Virus record (IMG/VR): IMGVR_UViG_3300009709_000002
Location: 64,001-128,000 of that record
Reading direction: 5' to 3' (one strand)
Origin: a virus
Taxonomy: Duplodnaviria > Heunggongvirae > Uroviricota > Caudoviricetes
Length of the DNA: 64,000 nucleotides
Shown: piece by piece, positions 22,729 through 47,146 of the stretch
Numbering within the stretch: position 1 is the stretch's first letter
Layout: each line of letters starts with the position of its first letter
Translations under genes and position numbers: made by a program
Notes under the pieces: generated by a model
What the model was told of the DNA's origin: nothing
Databases searched by the model: none
Seen by the model: only the letters and a program-made list of their open reading frames with translations

Positions 22729-23083
22729 TGGTGGACCTGCGCGGAGTCGAACCGCGGTCTTTGAGTCATTTCCAGATACCGTCTACACTCATAGTTCCGT
22801 TGGTCATTTAGTCGATCAACAAAGCCCAAGCTGGCAAAGCGTGTTGATCCAAGCTCGCTAAATCTTAATTCACGGCCGCAAACGAGTCACATGAATCTAG
22901 TCAGTCAATCGGATGACCCGGCAATAAAGTAGGACTGACACTCTCTACTCGCCGAGCTTACGCTGCTAGAGCGTAAGAGCTGTCGTTAGACGCTGCGGTT
23001 ACTTCTGTTGCTCTGTTTAACGTCAGTTGCATGACGGAGTGCGGATAAACGAATTCTACCCAAATCTACACCATTTCAGGCCC
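22729..23083 (-). ncRNA. ssrA: tmRNA (SsrA)
   Basis: Acceptor stem GGGCCTG/CAGGTCC-ACCA with G3:U alanine determinant; T-arm CGCGG-TTCGACT-CCGCG; 355 nt; internal tag frame 22996-22958 AASNDSSYALAA*. Confidence 0.95.
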
Positions 23084-34481: not shown

Positions 34482-34564
34482 TGGTAGGCGCTACGGGATT
34501 CGAACCCGTAAAAGCACGGGGTTTAAGCCCGTCAGCTGTACCGATTTACATTAGCCAAGCGCCC
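34482..34564 (-). tRNA. tRNA-Leu(TAA), short variable loop and enlarged D-loop
   Basis: GGGCGCT/AGCGCCT-ACCA, ACGGG-CTTAAAC-CCCGT. Confidence 0.85.
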
Positions 34565-35658: not shown

Positions 35659-36128
35659 TTGGTTCCTTTCAACTCAGCCAGCTTTTCTTCCAGCTTCTTG
35701 ATCTCATCAGCTACTCGAGCAGCTTCTAATTCAGCCAGCTTCTTCTTAGCTAGCCTTATCAGAGTTGATTCCAAATCTCTTTGGTCAATTAGCCAAGCAG
35801 TTGGAATGCGAATTTCAATTCCCTTCCACTCTTCATAATGATCATACACTGTATAGCTTTCAATGACATCACCGAGATCTATGTCATCATTATGATCCCA
35901 CACTTCACGAGCGTGAGCGACATATTCCGAATTGATCAACGTCACCTTTAGCGTATCTTCCGATTCATGAAATCCAGTGACCTGAATGAGAAATCGGTGA
36001 TTCGGAATAGTGACATCATTGATGCCGTTGCAGTATTTCTTCCAAAGCGTACAGAATATTCTAATGCGCTTTGCAAGAGTTGATGCAGTTCCAAAAGCTA
36101 AAACTATGTCTGATTTAGAGTAGATCAT
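35655..36128 (-). CDS. Hypothetical protein with C-terminal coiled coil
   Basis: 157 aa, ATGA coupling. Confidence 0.6.
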   Translation of the reverse strand: MIYSKSDIVLAFGTASTLAKRIRIFCTLWKKYCNGINDVTIPNHRFLIQVTGFHESEDTLKVTLINSEYVAHAREVWDHNDDIDLGDVIESYTVYDHYEEWKGIEIRIPTAWLIDQRDLESTLIRLAKKKLAELEAARVADEIKKLEEKLAELKGTK

Positions 36129-36766
36129 ATTTGAAAATCAACTTCAAGAAAACTTGGTAAATCATGAATTGAAATTTCATCAATTAAGAACTTGTCCTTT
36201 TCAGATCCAAACATCATCCTAAATTTACTTCCATCATATTCTTTTATGACTTGACCATATTTTCGCTTATTATTATCGCTAAGCCAACCTTTTACTTCAA
36301 TGAATAGATCAAATTCTGGCAAATAAAAATCTGGTGTATAGTGCCGTGTTCTACTATATGGAAGTACTTTTCGTTCAAATTTGATTTGATTTTCAACAAA
36401 TTTGATAGCTACATCTCGCTCCCAAGTGCCTTGAACTTTTACACCATTTACTTCAAACCATTTAACATGAGACTCATTTGCTTCATTGCGCTTAATCGTT
36501 CGTAAAGAATGTTTACGTTTAGCCTCATCAGACCAAAGTTTCGGTGCAGCATTTTTGCTAGCTTCACTAATATCTCTGCGCTTTTTAGCTGCAACTTCGG
36601 CACTAAAAATCTCTTCATATTTCTTCCCTCTAGTGCTCAACGTCTTACCGAGATTGTTATGCACTGGAGGCTTGCCATTACGATGAATGATACACCATCT
36701 ATAATGTGCATTTAACGATTGGGGGTGATCAAATTCACGACCACATTCACAAACGTTATTCTTCAT
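36125..36766 (-). CDS. Zinc-finger plus PD-(D/E)xK endonuclease, homing-endonuclease-like
   Basis: CECGREF..LNAHYRWC N-terminus; YTPDFYLPEFDLFIEVKGW; AT-rich relative to neighbours. Confidence 0.75.
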   Translation of the reverse strand: MKNNVCECGREFDHPQSLNAHYRWCIIHRNGKPPVHNNLGKTLSTRGKKYEEIFSAEVAAKKRRDISEASKNAAPKLWSDEAKRKHSLRTIKRNEANESHVKWFEVNGVKVQGTWERDVAIKFVENQIKFERKVLPYSRTRHYTPDFYLPEFDLFIEVKGWLSDNNKRKYGQVIKEYDGSKFRMMFGSEKDKFLIDEISIHDLPSFLEVDFQI

Positions 36767-37375: not shown

Positions 37376-37457
37376 CGGTGGATGCACTAGGAATCGAACC
37401 TAGCTGCCAGAGGCCACGGGTTTACAGTCCGCTAAGTACACCAGTACAATTACATCC
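37376..37457 (-). tRNA. tRNA-Tyr(GTA), atypical D-arm, ends CCG
   Basis: GGATGTA/TGCATCC-A, GTAC-TGGT-GTAC, loop CTGTAAA. Confidence 0.8.
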
Positions 37458-37528: not shown

Positions 37529-37619
37529 TGGTGGAGCACGGACGGAATCGAACCTCATGCCCAGAGGGAAGAGCTTTACAGGCTCCCGATAGCACCAGCC
37601 ATCCTTACTTACGCGCTCC
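37529..37619 (-). tRNA. tRNA-Tyr(GTA), highly atypical
   Basis: 8-bp acceptor GGAGCGCG/CGTGCTCC-ACCA, extra linker, GATGGC-TGGT-GCTATC D-arm, GGAGC-CTGTAAA-GCTCT. Confidence 0.75.
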
Positions 37620-37629
37620 ATTTACTTCT

Positions 37630-37708
37630 TGGTCCCCTCAGTGGGAGTCGAACCCACAAAATCTCTCGGTTCTGAGCCGAGCGGCTTTACCAAATTGCCC
37701 ATGAGGGG
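37630..37708 (-). tRNA. tRNA-Leu(CAG), short variable loop
   Basis: CCCCTCA/TGAGGGG-ACCA, CTCGG-CTCAGAA-CCGAG. Confidence 0.9.
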
Positions 37709-37722
37709 AGAAACAAGTCTTG

Positions 37723-37758
37723 AAAATCAACAGAGGCCTCTAAATAGAGGCCTCTGCT
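37723..37758 (-). terminator. Attenuator terminator (3:4 hairpin)
   Basis: CAGAGGCCTCT-ATTT-AGAGGCCTCTG then TTGATTTT, 14 nt before the first tRNA. Confidence 0.75.
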
Positions 37759-37811
37759 TTGAAAATCTTGTGTGAACTATATCACATATCGACCTTCAAA
37801 CCGACGCCTCT
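37746..37811 (-). promoter_or_regulatory. Antiterminator (2:3 helix)
   Basis: AGAGGCGTCGGTTTGAAGGTC (37811-37791) is complementary to GATTTTCAAAGCAGAGGCCTCT (37767-37746), which contains the terminator 5' arm. Confidence 0.75.
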
Positions 37812-37877
37812 CAATTCGCTATAGAGCGAATAAGATAGCAACGAGCTTGACAGTAAGGATATGTTGAAAGTGTTCAT
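37782..37877 (-). CDS. Putative attenuator leader peptide, 31 aa (MNTFNISLLSSSLLSYSLYSELRGVGLKVDM)
   Basis: ATG 5 nt after TATAAATA (leaderless); codons 6-20 are exclusively Ile(ATA)/Ser/Leu/Tyr. Confidence 0.8.
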   Translation of the reverse strand: MNTFNISLLSSSLLSYSLYSELRGVGLKVDM

Positions 37878-37882
37878 GATGT

Positions 37883-37890
37883 TATTTATA
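37883..37890 (-). promoter_or_regulatory. Late promoter TATAAATA
   Basis: Exact T4 late consensus; family motif seen at 11 other gene starts in the window. Confidence 0.75.
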
Positions 37891-37941
37891 AGAGTGGTGG
37901 AAAACTCATCCAAAATGGTTGGTGTCCAACCGATAGATGAA

Positions 37942-38613
37942 TTATATTCCAACTAGCTCTGAAAGTAAATTACTTTGTGGCATAGTTTTCAACATGCTCT
38001 TTGGGTACATGAAGTGGTAGTACTCTTGCTTGTGTCGCGTGCCATCATCAGCATGGTTAGCGCAATAACCACATCGAATCCAGTCATTGAAGGAACGGCA
38101 TGGAAAGTTTTTCACGTTCAATCCAAGGCCAGTTTTCATCGCATATCGTGCCAAATAATCTGCACGGTTCATCTCAACGAAACGATCATGACCCTTCATG
38201 TATGAGATGCGAGCGTGCTTCAAACAATTTTGAACTTGCCTGAAGATCTTCATGCCATAAAATTCCATGCAAGCTGCCTGGAATGATTGTAACACTCTAT
38301 CTCGATGGGTGAACATGGCATTATCATCATGCATCGCCATATTTGCGTAGGCGATAGGATGAAAATCGGAGTAGAAACTCATATCTTCATACCGAAAACC
38401 ATAGTCGAGACCAAGCAACATACCTTCAATGAAGGCACAATATTCATGGTATCCCATTGATTCTCTATTTGCGGTAGAAAAACCAGAGATCTCTTTTGTT
38501 GTCCCATTAAAGTGGGCCACGATTCCCCAGCCAATACCACGAAGCCGTCCAGATTTTTGACCTAAGATCTTAGCGCCGGCAGATCCATCTACGATGATTT
38601 GAATTTTGCTCAT
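37942..38613 (-). CDS. Ribonuclease H-like protein
   Basis: IIVDGSA..GWGIV, E, YSD, MKGH..NRADYLAR match the RNase HI pattern. Confidence 0.75.
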   Translation of the reverse strand: MSKIQIIVDGSAGAKILGQKSGRLRGIGWGIVAHFNGTTKEISGFSTANRESMGYHEYCAFIEGMLLGLDYGFRYEDMSFYSDFHPIAYANMAMHDDNAMFTHRDRVLQSFQAACMEFYGMKIFRQVQNCLKHARISYMKGHDRFVEMNRADYLARYAMKTGLGLNVKNFPCRSFNDWIRCGYCANHADDGTRHKQEYYHFMYPKSMLKTMPQSNLLSELVGI

Positions 38614-39643: not shown

Positions 39644-40267
39644 TTACTCCGTGTAGTAACGACCTTCGCGCCAGTCTTTGAGGACTCGGCTGTGTTGGTT
39701 GACGATCTTTGAAGCAAGAAATTCCATCTGGTCCGTCTTGATGTTACGGCTCTTCAAGATCATCGCTTCTGCCTTACATGGAACGTATGGAACGTAGAGC
39801 GGATCCATCGTCTTGGTGCCGAACGGGCTGAATAGATTTCCGCTCAACTTTTCGCCAGGCATCAAGTCATCTTTCAAGTTGTTACAGCCCTTGCAAGCCG
39901 TGACAACGTTCGTCCACTTGTCCTTACCACCCTTTGACTGTGGGTGAATGTGGTCACGCGTCAGTTCCGTAGAACGGAACATTCTTCCGCAGTAAGCACA
40001 GACGTTACGGTCACGAGCAAAGAGAGCCTGGTTCGTTAGCGCAGGTTCACGGTAACGACGTGGGTTCGGAGCTCCATCAACCAAAATGATGCTGCTCGTC
40101 TTAAGAGTTGACTGTTCACCATGGTTGTTGTGGCCACCACGGTAGATGAACATGTCTTCGCCAAAATGCTGCGTGACGAGGTTCTTTGCTTCCAAAATCA
40201 TAGCATCCTGGATGCTAATCCACATGTGTGGTTGGAAGTTTGCGTCTAATGTAAGGATCGCGGTCAT
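39644..40267 (-). CDS. HNH endonuclease (McrA-like)
   Basis: LFARDRNVCAYCG..TRDHIHPQSKGG..WTNVVTACKGCNNLK. Confidence 0.9.
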   Translation of the reverse strand: MTAILTLDANFQPHMWISIQDAMILEAKNLVTQHFGEDMFIYRGGHNNHGEQSTLKTSSIILVDGAPNPRRYREPALTNQALFARDRNVCAYCGRMFRSTELTRDHIHPQSKGGKDKWTNVVTACKGCNNLKDDLMPGEKLSGNLFSPFGTKTMDPLYVPYVPCKAEAMILKSRNIKTDQMEFLASKIVNQHSRVLKDWREGRYYTE

Positions 40268-45523: not shown

Positions 45524-47146
45524 TTATTCTGCGTCAGCGTCTTGTGTCACCGGTTTTACCTGCAAAGACGGAATGGTTCCCGCCATCAGCTCGTGAATGA
45601 TAGAATCACCACGACGAGTAAAGTCAACGTAGTCAAAGATTTTCGGTGAGAAGCCTGCCAATTGCATCCAGCCATCACGTGAATCGAGCGGCGTTGACTT
45701 GCCAGAGTCGATATTCACCGCGATCAGCACGGTGCCTTTCTCAAATTGCTTCGTGAAGCTTGGCGAGACGTCCAACTTCTGGTGGTAATAACCACTAACA
45801 CGATTCACTTCCATGTCAGACAGAATAACCACAGTGTCTGGTTCAAATCCAAGATGACCTTTCAGGTTCAACGCCGCAGCGATGTTGGTACCACCGCCCT
45901 TGACCTTTTCCATGATCTGTTTGTACAGTGACATGATCGAGTCATTCGGATTGAGACCTTTCAGGTGCTCTGCCATGTTCGAGAACTGCGTCAGCATGAA
46001 TGTTTCAGCGTTCTTTGCTGACTTGACCAACGCAGCTGCAAAGATCGCAGCGATCTTTGCTGGCGAGTTGTTTTCATGCGAACGATCCAGCTTACCAACT
46101 CCTGGTACACGATGATAGGCAAAATTCAACATTGAGCCAGACGTGTCCATGATGATCCACGGGCGTTGACCGATAGCTTGCAAATTGCCGATTGACGAAT
46201 CAGCTGCTAGCGAGATCGCCGTCAAGAAGTATTGCGGCAAGCCAGCTGTTTGAGCAGCTTCATACGCGGCAATGAATGCCCACGGAAGTTGCTTTGACTT
46301 AGCTACTTGAGCTGGATCTGAAATTCGTGCAAGAACACCATCCACGATAGCCTTATCAACACCAGCTTGGTGAATGTTACGCAGGTTACGAAGCAAAGCC
46401 ATGTAACCAACTTCACCGCTACCACGACGAGAAAGCAGCTGTTCCCAAAGCGCCTTATCAGAAAGACGTTCTTCCGCAGGCTTCTGGCCGTTTGCTGACA
46501 GCTCCACTTCCCACGTGTACGGCGCTTCGAGAGTTTCTGTCATGATCTTCTGGAAGATCGCTGCACGAGCTTCATCACGAGGCGTCGGGTGAGTAACACG
46601 GAGCAAATCCTTGAACTTCAAGGCGCCGTCGCGGTTGTACTTTCCGAACTGATAAGCGTCAAATTTGCTGAATGAGTCAGCTACGCCCTTCTTGATCGCC
46701 ATTGGAATGGCTTTCTTGTCACCAAACACCGTCAGTGCATAAGCATACAAATCGGTGAGCTGGTCTGCGCGTTGAATTACATCCGAAACGAGATTACGCA
46801 TTCCAGACACGTGTAGCTTAGCTTCACGAAGCACCGCCGCGAGCTCAACAACCATGATGATCGGCATCGTGCGGATGTTCATGTTGCTGCGAGCGAATAG
46901 TGCTACTCGGCCAGCGAATTCAGCGCCGATCTCACCATTTTGGGCTACGAGCTGCTTCAAAGCCAGCTTCATGCGGTCTACACGCTCATCAGAGCCTTCA
47001 TAGAATCCATCTCTGCCGTACATCGTTGCGACAACCGTTTCGAACAGGACATGCGTAGGCCCCTTCACGAATTGAAGGTTGCCATTGTGTGACAATGCTA
47101 CTTCACGAACTTGCACTTCTTGATTCTTTGGATTCAATTTCGACAT
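45524..47146 (-). CDS. Ro60/Rsr-like TROVE-vWA ribonucleoprotein
   Basis: FDAYQFGKY, KDLLRVTHP, TWEVELS, YMALLRNLRNI, QLPW, MIDAS DTSGSM, GGT, ILSDME. Confidence 0.9.
   Translation of the reverse strand: MSKLNPKNQEVQVREVALSHNGNLQFVKGPTHVLFETVVATMYGRDGFYEGSDERVDRMKLALKQLVAQNGEIGAEFAGRVALFARSNMNIRTMPIIMVVELAAVLREAKLHVSGMRNLVSDVIQRADQLTDLYAYALTVFGDKKAIPMAIKKGVADSFSKFDAYQFGKYNRDGALKFKDLLRVTHPTPRDEARAAIFQKIMTETLEAPYTWEVELSANGQKPAEERLSDKALWEQLLSRRGSGEVGYMALLRNLRNIHQAGVDKAIVDGVLARISDPAQVAKSKQLPWAFIAAYEAAQTAGLPQYFLTAISLAADSSIGNLQAIGQRPWIIMDTSGSMLNFAYHRVPGVGKLDRSHENNSPAKIAAIFAAALVKSAKNAETFMLTQFSNMAEHLKGLNPNDSIMSLYKQIMEKVKGGGTNIAAALNLKGHLGFEPDTVVILSDMEVNRVSGYYHQKLDVSPSFTKQFEKGTVLIAVNIDSGKSTPLDSRDGWMQLAGFSPKIFDYVDFTRRGDSIIHELMAGTIPSLQVKPVTQDADAE

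Follow-up and report, generated by a model that had tools for sequence, protein, structure and literature searches.

A 64,000-nucleotide (nt) stretch of DNA from a giant soil phage (Caudoviricetes; bases 64001–128000 of IMG/VR record IMGVR_UViG_3300009709_000002; hereafter the window) carries, directly ahead of an array of transfer RNA (tRNA) genes on its minus strand, a short leader open reading frame (ORF) followed by an intrinsic terminator. On in silico grounds we read this element as a ribosome-mediated leader-peptide transcription attenuator placed before tRNA genes, and we put the probability of this reading at roughly 0.75. The initial annotation of the window, made from its letters alone, had proposed an attenuator of the trp/his/leu type whose control codons match the tRNAs of the array, and the sequence tests reported here, including comparative ones, support that proposal. 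If so, the phage probably restricts production of its Leu, Ser and Tyr tRNAs to times when the corresponding codons are read slowly by ribosomes. The reason why phages carry tRNA genes has been debated for decades, with codon compensation on the one side and evasion of tRNA-cleaving defences on the other, and to our knowledge the control of phage tRNA expression has hardly been studied.

The source record is 360,227 bp long, has short terminal repeats and was judged complete. It encodes a transfer-messenger RNA (tmRNA) and more than 55 tRNA genes, nearly all of them on the minus strand and grouped in three arrays. Array A (genome 9.8–4.9 kb) serves Thr, Ala, Pro, Arg, Gly and Met; array B, which lies in the window (37708–27621), consists exclusively of Leu, Ser and Tyr tRNAs plus one CAT tRNA; and array C (genome 354.4–331.7 kb) serves Glu, Phe, His, Gln, Lys, Arg, Asn, Ile, Asp, Cys, Trp, Pro, Thr and Val. 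Coordinates below are those of the window unless the genome or another contig is named.

A leader ORF matched to the tRNAs that follow it

The leader ORF of array B (leader B) starts with an ATG at 37877, 5 nt beyond the element TATAAATA (37890–37883, minus strand), and comprises 31 sense codons and a TGA stop codon (37877–37782, stop at 37784–37782, minus strand) without a Shine–Dalgarno site. It ends 73 nt ahead of tRNA-Leu(CAG) (37630–37708, minus strand; found by both ARAGORN and Rfam), the first gene that the element would gate. The location of this ORF and its codon content proved to be as initially described: codons 6–20 (37862–37818, minus strand), the putative control codons, are made up of one Ile codon (ATA), five Leu codons, all distinct, seven Ser codons of five kinds and two Tyr codons, and GAA, TTG and AGA come right after codon 20. 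Leu, Ser and Tyr account for 14/15 of the control codons, and every one of these 14 is readable by tRNAs of the array. Regarding the array itself, the earlier counts of Ser (four), Tyr (three) and CAT (one) were verified, whereas six Leu tRNAs (CAG, AAG, TAG, GAG, TAA and TAA) could be verified in place of the seven claimed.

The codon run was evaluated against the whole 360-kb genome and against shuffled sequence. Among all ATG-initiated ORFs of 20–80 codons in six frames (n = 2459), leader B ranked first for Leu, Ser and Tyr in a 15-codon window with a score of 14, the next four ORFs reaching 11. Dinucleotide shuffles of the same 45 nt gave 14/15 Leu/Ser/Tyr codons in any frame in 4 of 100,000 cases (p = 4e-5), and the enrichment is frame-specific, the remaining two real frames scoring 5 and 4. 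Chance and base composition are therefore both excluded as the origin of the run, and by the same shuffles and other-frame scores the pyrimidine-rich arm of a G-U-rich hairpin does not account for it. The initial annotation had further suggested that the variety of synonymous codons reflects sensing of isoacceptors rather than of one amino acid. Under the codon usage of the phage, five Leu codons without a repeat combined with five or more kinds of Ser codon give a joint p = 0.016, a modest hint that leader B samples isoacceptors; two codons in a leader of another phage that lack a cognate phage tRNA (see below) speak against this part of the proposal.

Three mutually exclusive helices

The RNA of 37890–37709 folds to −64.3 kcal/mol (z = −8.05), and none of 200 shuffles was as stable. 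Three mutually exclusive helices, termed 1:2, 2:3 and 3:4 after the strands that form them, were found computationally, as had been predicted, with the control codons on strand 1; the predicted protector helix (37839–37806) is the apical part of a longer imperfect hairpin that encloses the whole ORF (37876–37773). Strand 1 is the 5′ arm of this ORF-spanning hairpin (37876–37825, minus strand, from minimum-energy and consensus folds) and strand 2 is its 3′ arm (37820–37773, minus strand), of which a core at 37812–37791, corresponding to codons 22–29, can pair with strand 3 instead. Strand 3, consisting of the 5′ flank and 5′ arm of the terminator (37767–37746, minus strand), pairs either with strand 2, forming the antiterminator, or with strand 4. 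The resulting 3:4 helix is an intrinsic terminator (37756–37722, minus strand) with an 11-bp GC-rich stem, a 4-nt loop and an interrupted U tract; its hairpin (37756–37731) is worth −20.0 kcal/mol and is followed by the U-rich tail at 37730–37722. tRNA-Leu(CAG) starts 22 nt after the terminator stem and 13 nt after the tail, a gap too small for a promoter, and this tRNA would therefore be made only by read-through.

The predicted energies are −37.6 kcal/mol for 1:2, −31.3 kcal/mol for 2:3 and −20.0 kcal/mol for 3:4. The duplex of strands 2 and 3 considered by itself has −21.2 kcal/mol, which 4 of 1000 shuffles equalled. When the RNA was ended at strand 3, the minimum-energy fold was the 2:3 helix in leader B, in its relative L064 and at the head of array C (both described below), with 7–10 of the 11 bases of the terminator 5′ arm paired upstream (9/11 in leader B); when strand 4 was added, the fold became 1:2 plus 3:4. 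On this strand, the motif flanking the terminator occurs only at the heads of arrays B and C. A 9-nt direct repeat was also observed on both sides of the terminator hairpin (37767–37759 and 37728–37720, minus strand), and strand 2 could in principle pair with either copy.

Conservation of the ORF and the helices in relatives

Relatives of leader B were reached through the RNase H-like protein encoded next to it, using a large protein set; three were found, one of whose contigs ends before the leader. The same neighbour led to two syntenic metagenomic lineages, L065 together with L066, which are almost identical in the leader, and L064. In these relatives both the ORF and the helices are kept. 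L064 is the more informative: its neighbour protein is just 43% identical. The leader is 89% conserved, far above the flanking gene. L064 retains the ATG, the frame and the TGA in an ORF of 32 codons whose sole indel is an in-frame 3 nt, and after the stop codon indels of 1, 4 and 1 nt appear. L065 likewise keeps the start, frame and stop. In the control region of L064 there are one added Leu, one Leu-to-Ser replacement and three synonymous changes. The second half of the ORF shows radical changes among the relatives (Glu to Gly, Val to Phe, Lys to Ile) with the RNA pairing kept.

This last pattern bears on the idea that the ORF encodes a functional Ser/Leu-rich micro-protein, for example a membrane-active peptide, whose position before the tRNA genes is incidental. 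The ORF is indeed conserved at 31–32 codons and the first half of its peptide is moderately hydrophobic; however, a protein-level function does not fit a second half in which amino acids change radically while base pairing is preserved, nor does it fit the other four leaders described below, which differ in composition, each following its own array. We give this idea hardly any credence.

The helices show a compensatory pattern of the kind that the initial annotation had suggested looking for. At one position, all four strands change together in L064 (columns 42, 81, 131 and 153 of alignment A2, where A, U, A and U replace G, C, G and C), and this change preserves 1:2, 2:3 and 3:4. In addition, a G-G mismatch in the 2:3 helix becomes a U-G pair both in L064 and in a soil-metagenome variant, and the terminator stem is kept in L064 and L065 via a G-C to A-U or G-U change.

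Further searches for relatives gave little. The RNase H-like neighbour, used alone or as an alignment, retrieved nothing in IMG/VR, a search with the PP-binding neighbour gave no further usable contig, and a conserved 21-mer from the leader start had no hit in viral contigs; its single metagenome hit was rejected as unrelated beyond the 21-mer. Near-identical and related sequences of the phage lineage are present in moss and soil metagenomes (public runs). A 739-nt contig from a rhizosphere RNA library includes the leader and continues past the terminator for 111 nt of the next tRNA; it also extends upstream of both promoters described below, shows neither a start nor an end, and may come from DNA or from a long read-through transcript. 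Between the upstream promoter and the leader, the relatives hold different inserted small ORFs (96 and 61 codons; intervals window 37915–37990, L065:10640–10940 and L068:880–1130), giving this interval the look of a gene-insertion hotspot.

The heads of arrays C and A

The head of array C (genome 354692–354448, or L069:549–793, minus strand) carries a comparable cassette composed of the same promoter motif, a Shine–Dalgarno site, a 44-codon ORF (leader C) and a terminator whose flanks match those of leader B and whose stem differs. Of the 43 residues after Met, 37 (86%) fall within the 14 amino acids of array C, against a background of 0.64 (binomial p = 1.2e-3; a level equalled by 3 of 903 small ORFs and by 11 of 1963 windows taken from real proteins), and the best 31-residue window has 30/31 in the set. 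The residues outside the set cluster at codons 33–38, the segment that pairs with the 5′ flank and arm of the terminator. The antiterminator duplex of leader C has −19.7 kcal/mol, and 1 of 1000 shuffles was as good. In one relative the corresponding peptide is 93% identical: Asn replaces Pro, Thr replaces Ser and a Pro has been added. Each of these changes remains within the set, and one of them eliminates the sole out-of-set residue of the control region. Three Logan contigs with an identical leader C peptide are almost identical in DNA and offer no covariation.

At the head of array A (head A), a 22-bp perfect hairpin follows the promoter motif and a second hairpin lies over the ribosome-binding site, with no terminator before the first tRNA gene; this tRNA gene (genome 9727–9848) appears to carry an intron.

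Matched leaders in an independent, cultured phage

Through a weak tRNA hit we reached the jumbo Tunturiibacter phage Tunturi 5 (PP885688.1; 308,711 bp), whose host, Tunturiibacter psychrotolerans, belongs to the phylum Acidobacteriota and which is, like its host, in culture (PMC11924767). Tunturi 5 and the source phage share only distant protein similarity. At the head of each of its three tRNA clusters stands a short ORF with a canonical terminator (cassettes at L075:2481–2640, L076:3172–3390 and L076:15574–15785); two of these ORFs are unannotated and the third is annotated as the hypothetical protein gp308. Each leader was scored against the amino-acid set of its own cluster, both over its full length and in its best window of 15 codons, the latter ranked for leaders 2 and 3 among 189 local small ORFs. 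Leader 1 (L075:2481–2579; set Leu, Cys, Tyr and Ser) had 16/31 matching residues (p = 1e-4) and a best window of 15/15, the next local small ORF reaching 10; its cluster runs in the order Leu, Cys, Leu, Leu, Tyr, Leu, Ser, Ser, Ser, with the first tRNA right after the U tract. Leader 2 (L076:3172–3336; set Asn, Gln, Gly, Thr, Pro, His, Ala and Phe) had 29/53 (p = 0.011), or 25/36 when counted from the second Met (p = 1.4e-4), and a best window of 15/15 (rank 1/189). Leader 3, which is gp308 (L076:15574–15723; set Trp, Asp, Met, Lys, Val, Arg, Glu, Ile and Gly), has a Shine–Dalgarno site and gave 37/48 (p = 6e-5) with a best window of 14/15 (rank 1/189).

No Tunturi leader was enriched for the set of another cluster. 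Amino acids are split among clusters differently in Tunturi 5 and in the source phage, and each leader follows its own cluster: for instance, the Leu/Ser/Tyr cluster of Tunturi 5 includes a tRNA-Cys and its leader has two Cys codons, while array B and leader B have neither. Leader codons and array content thus co-vary over five independent leaders from two phages, a comparison that had been proposed at the outset. Fisher's combination of the leader–array match over all six heads, including the failing head A, gave p = 1e-12. In all five leaders the terminator arm has its best upstream partner within the final third of the ORF (combined p = 1e-5), and the stop codon stands 24–31 nt ahead of that arm. 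The five leaders share architecture and codon logic and have little common sequence. A MAFFT alignment of Tunturi leader 1 with leader B was discarded, as it misaligned the apical hairpin. Two further phages, Pseudomonas phage D6 and Erythrobacter phage vB_EliS-L02, were considered and set aside, the similarity being confined to tRNAs and their mixed arrays being uninformative.

These comparisons bear on two other explanations. The first is that the region is merely a structured 5′ leader, serving as a stabilizer or an RNase III site, joined to a constitutive leaky terminator that sets a fixed low read-through or insulates the tRNAs from upstream transcription, the ORF being untranslated. The hairpin is very stable and conserved, all nucleotide changes in the ORF among the relatives fit RNA structure alone, leader B has no Shine–Dalgarno site, and head A consists of a promoter and then a long hairpin with no matched ORF, all of which such a leader would accommodate. 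On the other hand, it leaves unexplained the frame-specific Leu/Ser/Tyr run (p = 4e-5; rank 1/2459), the matched composition of four further leaders unrelated in sequence, the Cys codons alongside tRNA-Cys in Tunturi 5 and the in-frame indels in two leaders, and we regard it as distinctly unlikely.

The second accepts that the ORF is translated and matched to its array and has it act by another route, such as protection of the RNA from Rho or RNases, or control of the processing of the first tRNA. This would be in keeping with equilibrium folds that never open the terminator, with the interrupted U tract and with the constant distance of 24–31 nt from stop codon to terminator stem, which could equally serve contact between ribosome and polymerase. 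However, the 2:3 complementarity is significant and conserved and overlaps the terminator arm in B and C, one position co-changes in all four strands, and in every ORF strand 2 falls within the final third; these features are expected for a choice between terminator and antiterminator and are needless otherwise. We consider action by another route unlikely.

Promoters and the reach of the switch

Two promoter-like elements precede leader B. The upstream one, P1 (37969–37941, minus strand), is a sigma-70-like promoter (TTTACT, 17 nt, TATAAT) with 10/12 matches in a consensus scan; it sits at the 3′ end of the RNase H-like gene, matches sigma-70 better than the second promoter and is kept in L064, L065 and L068. 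The second, P2 (37904–37883, minus strand), is the array-head motif (TTTTCCAYC, 5 nt, TATAAATA), conserved in L064 and L065. Between P1 and P2 lies a small hairpin with a T-rich tail, a terminator-like hit (37931–37917, minus strand). When up to 5 mismatches are allowed, a 22-nt motif around TATAAATA matches the genome at only three places, each of them heading one tRNA array. A scan of IMG/VR with this motif returned 60 hits, none of them close to a tRNA; all were chance matches within AT-rich coding sequence. If TATAAA is taken as the −10 element, a TTGRTG-like hexamer, TTGGAT-like in P2 itself, is found 17–18 nt upstream, and the usual start position is a CA dinucleotide, the A of which is, in leader B, the A of the ATG. 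Because the ATG lies just 5 nt past this −10-like element, the leader B mRNA is probably leaderless; this is the simplest reading, with the start site placed from the position of the promoter.

The spacer of the array-head promoter is conserved past the needs of sigma-70 and holds a small inverted repeat. Both features suggest a bound factor and speak for factor-dependent antitermination, in which read-through would be decided by a protein of phage or host, or by direct binding of a tRNA to the leader as in T-box RNAs, and the ORF would be secondary; bacteria do have tRNA-sensing RNAs. Against it, no T-box (RF00230) or other Rfam match was obtained even at E <= 10, the five leaders share too little sequence to make a common binding site likely, and the codon match would be meaningless without translation. 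We see a very small chance that such a factor governs the element. None of these alternative explanations accounts for the array-specific codon content.

TATAAATA alone is not rare, with 21 copies in the genome against 16 expected, and 7 copies lie just before tRNA genes. Copies 10–25 nt upstream of single tRNA genes, in or outside arrays, were seen at genome positions 7328, 240173, 332553 and 351561. This placement suggests many internal tRNA promoters. The internal sigma-70-like promoter to which the initial annotation had drawn attention as a caveat (37515–37487, minus strand; TTTACA, 17 nt, TAGAAT with TG) was found by a promoter scan, and the caveat is in fact more general, several array tRNAs having their own TATAAATA-type elements. 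The arrays are therefore not single operons, and the switch would strictly control the first tRNAs only. In array B these are tRNA-Leu(CAG) and the second gated gene, tRNA-Tyr(GTA) (37533–37609, minus strand), which lies upstream of the internal promoter and was detected by ARAGORN at a lowered threshold and read by eye. At its default setting ARAGORN missed three tRNAs of the window (34485–34564, 37377–37457 and 37533–37609, minus strand), namely a Leu(UAA) tRNA with an odd D arm and two Tyr(GUA) tRNAs.

Several other features of the tRNA regions and their surroundings were observed. Endonuclease genes (endonuclease I-like and HNH; 36125–36766 and 39644–40267, minus strand) lie among the tRNA genes, an arrangement shared with other phage tRNA regions. 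The tmRNA gene (22729–23083, minus strand; tag ending in YALAA) shares the strand of the Leu/Ser/Tyr array and is located at its far end. A tRNA with a CUA anticodon (genome 277432–277506, minus strand) may be an amber suppressor. A protein combining TROVE (Ro60-like) and VWA domains is encoded at 45524–47146 (minus strand) and also on contigs of two relatives.

Points that weigh against an attenuator

The following observations count against reading the element as an attenuator. Leader B and Tunturi leader 1 have no Shine–Dalgarno site, the ATG of each standing 5 nt after a TA...A hexamer; their translation would depend on a start site that makes them leaderless, and leaderless initiation works efficiently in certain bacterial phyla but poorly in others. 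Head A (genome 10120–9850, L070, minus strand) has the promoter motif but no matched ORF or comparable terminator: the 51-codon ORF found there encodes a small hydrophobic protein of ordinary composition, with 16/50 residues in the array set (p = 0.61). Matching of codons to tRNAs is imperfect elsewhere as well, since leader C contains AAA and the phage has only Lys(CTT) tRNAs, and since no phage tRNA is cognate to the codons CTA and TCA of Tunturi leader 1. In Tunturi leader 3 the 2:3 duplex does not reach significance (p = 0.19), and the helix covariation comes from three sequence types, for which shuffle statistics are powerless. With regard to the reach of the switch, internal promoters inside the arrays let later tRNAs be expressed without it, protein genes are interspersed among the tRNA genes, and the Ser tRNAs of array B lie 3–7 kb downstream of the leader, so that the switch may govern just part of the array.

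A further point concerns folding with the ribosome in place, a check that had been proposed together with the attenuator. When a ribosome footprint was masked at any codon of leader B, the terminator was still folded at equilibrium (P > 0.9), and antitermination is thus not shown by these folds. We did not weigh this result against the attenuator because the choice between the helices would be kinetic; the same folds cannot show the switch either. Under the model, antitermination must be kinetic: strand 2 would have to capture strand 3 ahead of the synthesis of strand 4. In the trp attenuator, too, the terminator exceeds the antiterminator in stability, and classical attenuators are understood as kinetic.

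Proposed mechanism

From the arrangement described above we infer a transcription start, translation of the ORF and regulated read-through, as follows. Transcription would start at the array-head promoter, at or next to the A of the ATG, yielding a leaderless mRNA, and a ribosome would load on the nascent RNA and translate the 31 codons, of which codons 6–20 would sample codons of the Leu, Ser and Tyr tRNAs encoded downstream. When aminoacyl-tRNAs are plentiful, the ribosome would cross strand 2 to the stop codon, helix 1:2 would close behind it and strand 3 would be left free; the 3:4 terminator would then form, and RNA polymerase would stop 22 nt before tRNA-Leu(CAG). When decoding is slow, the ribosome would remain on strand 1, strand 2 would take strand 3 as the latter emerges, the terminator could not nucleate and transcription would read through into the tRNA genes. 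The outcome would be a negative feedback by which a tRNA block is made when its codons are read slowly, and homeostatic feedback on tRNA supply follows directly from this wiring.

A broader interpretation, which we offer only tentatively and hold to be possible rather than likely, is that in giant phages each tRNA block is an autonomous sensor of decoding capacity, whose codon-matched leader would check the charged-tRNA pool so that just the block in short supply is turned on, and that the Leu/Ser/Tyr block is an inducible counter-defence replacing cleaved host tRNAs. Leu, Ser and Tyr tRNAs are those with a long variable arm, targets of some defence nucleases; Septu, for example, is reported to cut the variable loop of tRNA-Tyr (PMC13096335).

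If the attenuator is real, phages gauge decoding speed directly, block by block, by a classic bacterial mechanism with a new target, and this would be the first case of leader-peptide attenuation of tRNA genes. It would also provide a sequence-readable signature from which the tRNAs that a phage handles as a single unit of function could be predicted, as well as compact natural sensors for the availability of chosen tRNA sets. Since Tunturi 5 and its host are in culture, the idea is directly testable.

Comparison with known systems

The initial annotation knew of no described attenuator controlling a phage tRNA operon, and our full-text literature searches, with most subscription journals outside their coverage, found no such attenuator and no published leader-peptide control of tRNA genes. 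Among the Rfam leader families (Leu, His, Thr, Trp and Phe) none scored above the gathering threshold, the best being Phe_leader with 16.9 bits against 55 and on the wrong strand, and at permissive thresholds Rfam gave generic terminator-like noise only.

In mycobacteria, leaderless polycysteine short ORFs are reported to act as Cys-responsive attenuators (bioRxiv 10.1101/834739). They are a precedent for what is proposed for leader B, a regulatory short ORF placed at the very 5′ end of an mRNA and lacking a Shine–Dalgarno site, and differ in responding to one amino acid, in controlling genes of Cys metabolism and in their downstream mechanism. T-box riboswitches are alike in that a leader RNA chooses between terminator and antiterminator, reports tRNA status and controls translation-related genes, but they bind uncharged tRNA directly and need no ORF.

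The layout itself is that of the multivalent ilvGMEDA (Ile/Leu/Val) and thr (Thr/Ile) leaders and of the trp, his, leu and pheA leaders, which have in common with leader B a promoter-proximal ORF of about 30 codons packed with regulatory codons, the helices 1:2, 2:3 and 3:4, strand 1 bearing the control codons, and an intrinsic terminator ahead of the genes under control. In enterobacterial attenuators, too, the terminator is more stable than the antiterminator and control is kinetic. Unlike the enterobacterial leaders, to which they show no relationship in sequence, the cassettes described here are phage-encoded, occur several to a genome with different codon sets and include two leaders without a Shine–Dalgarno site; moreover, leaders of the ilvGMEDA and thr type regulate biosynthetic enzymes, whereas here the regulated genes are tRNAs, and the sensor would read the very molecules whose genes it gates. 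The pheST attenuator, with its pheM leader, extends leader-peptide attenuation to a component of translation, phenylalanyl-tRNA synthetase, and responds to the supply of charged tRNA; it differs in controlling a synthetase, in sensing one amino acid and in being chromosomal. Closest in function to the element described here are the multivalent ilv and thr leaders together with the pheST attenuator.

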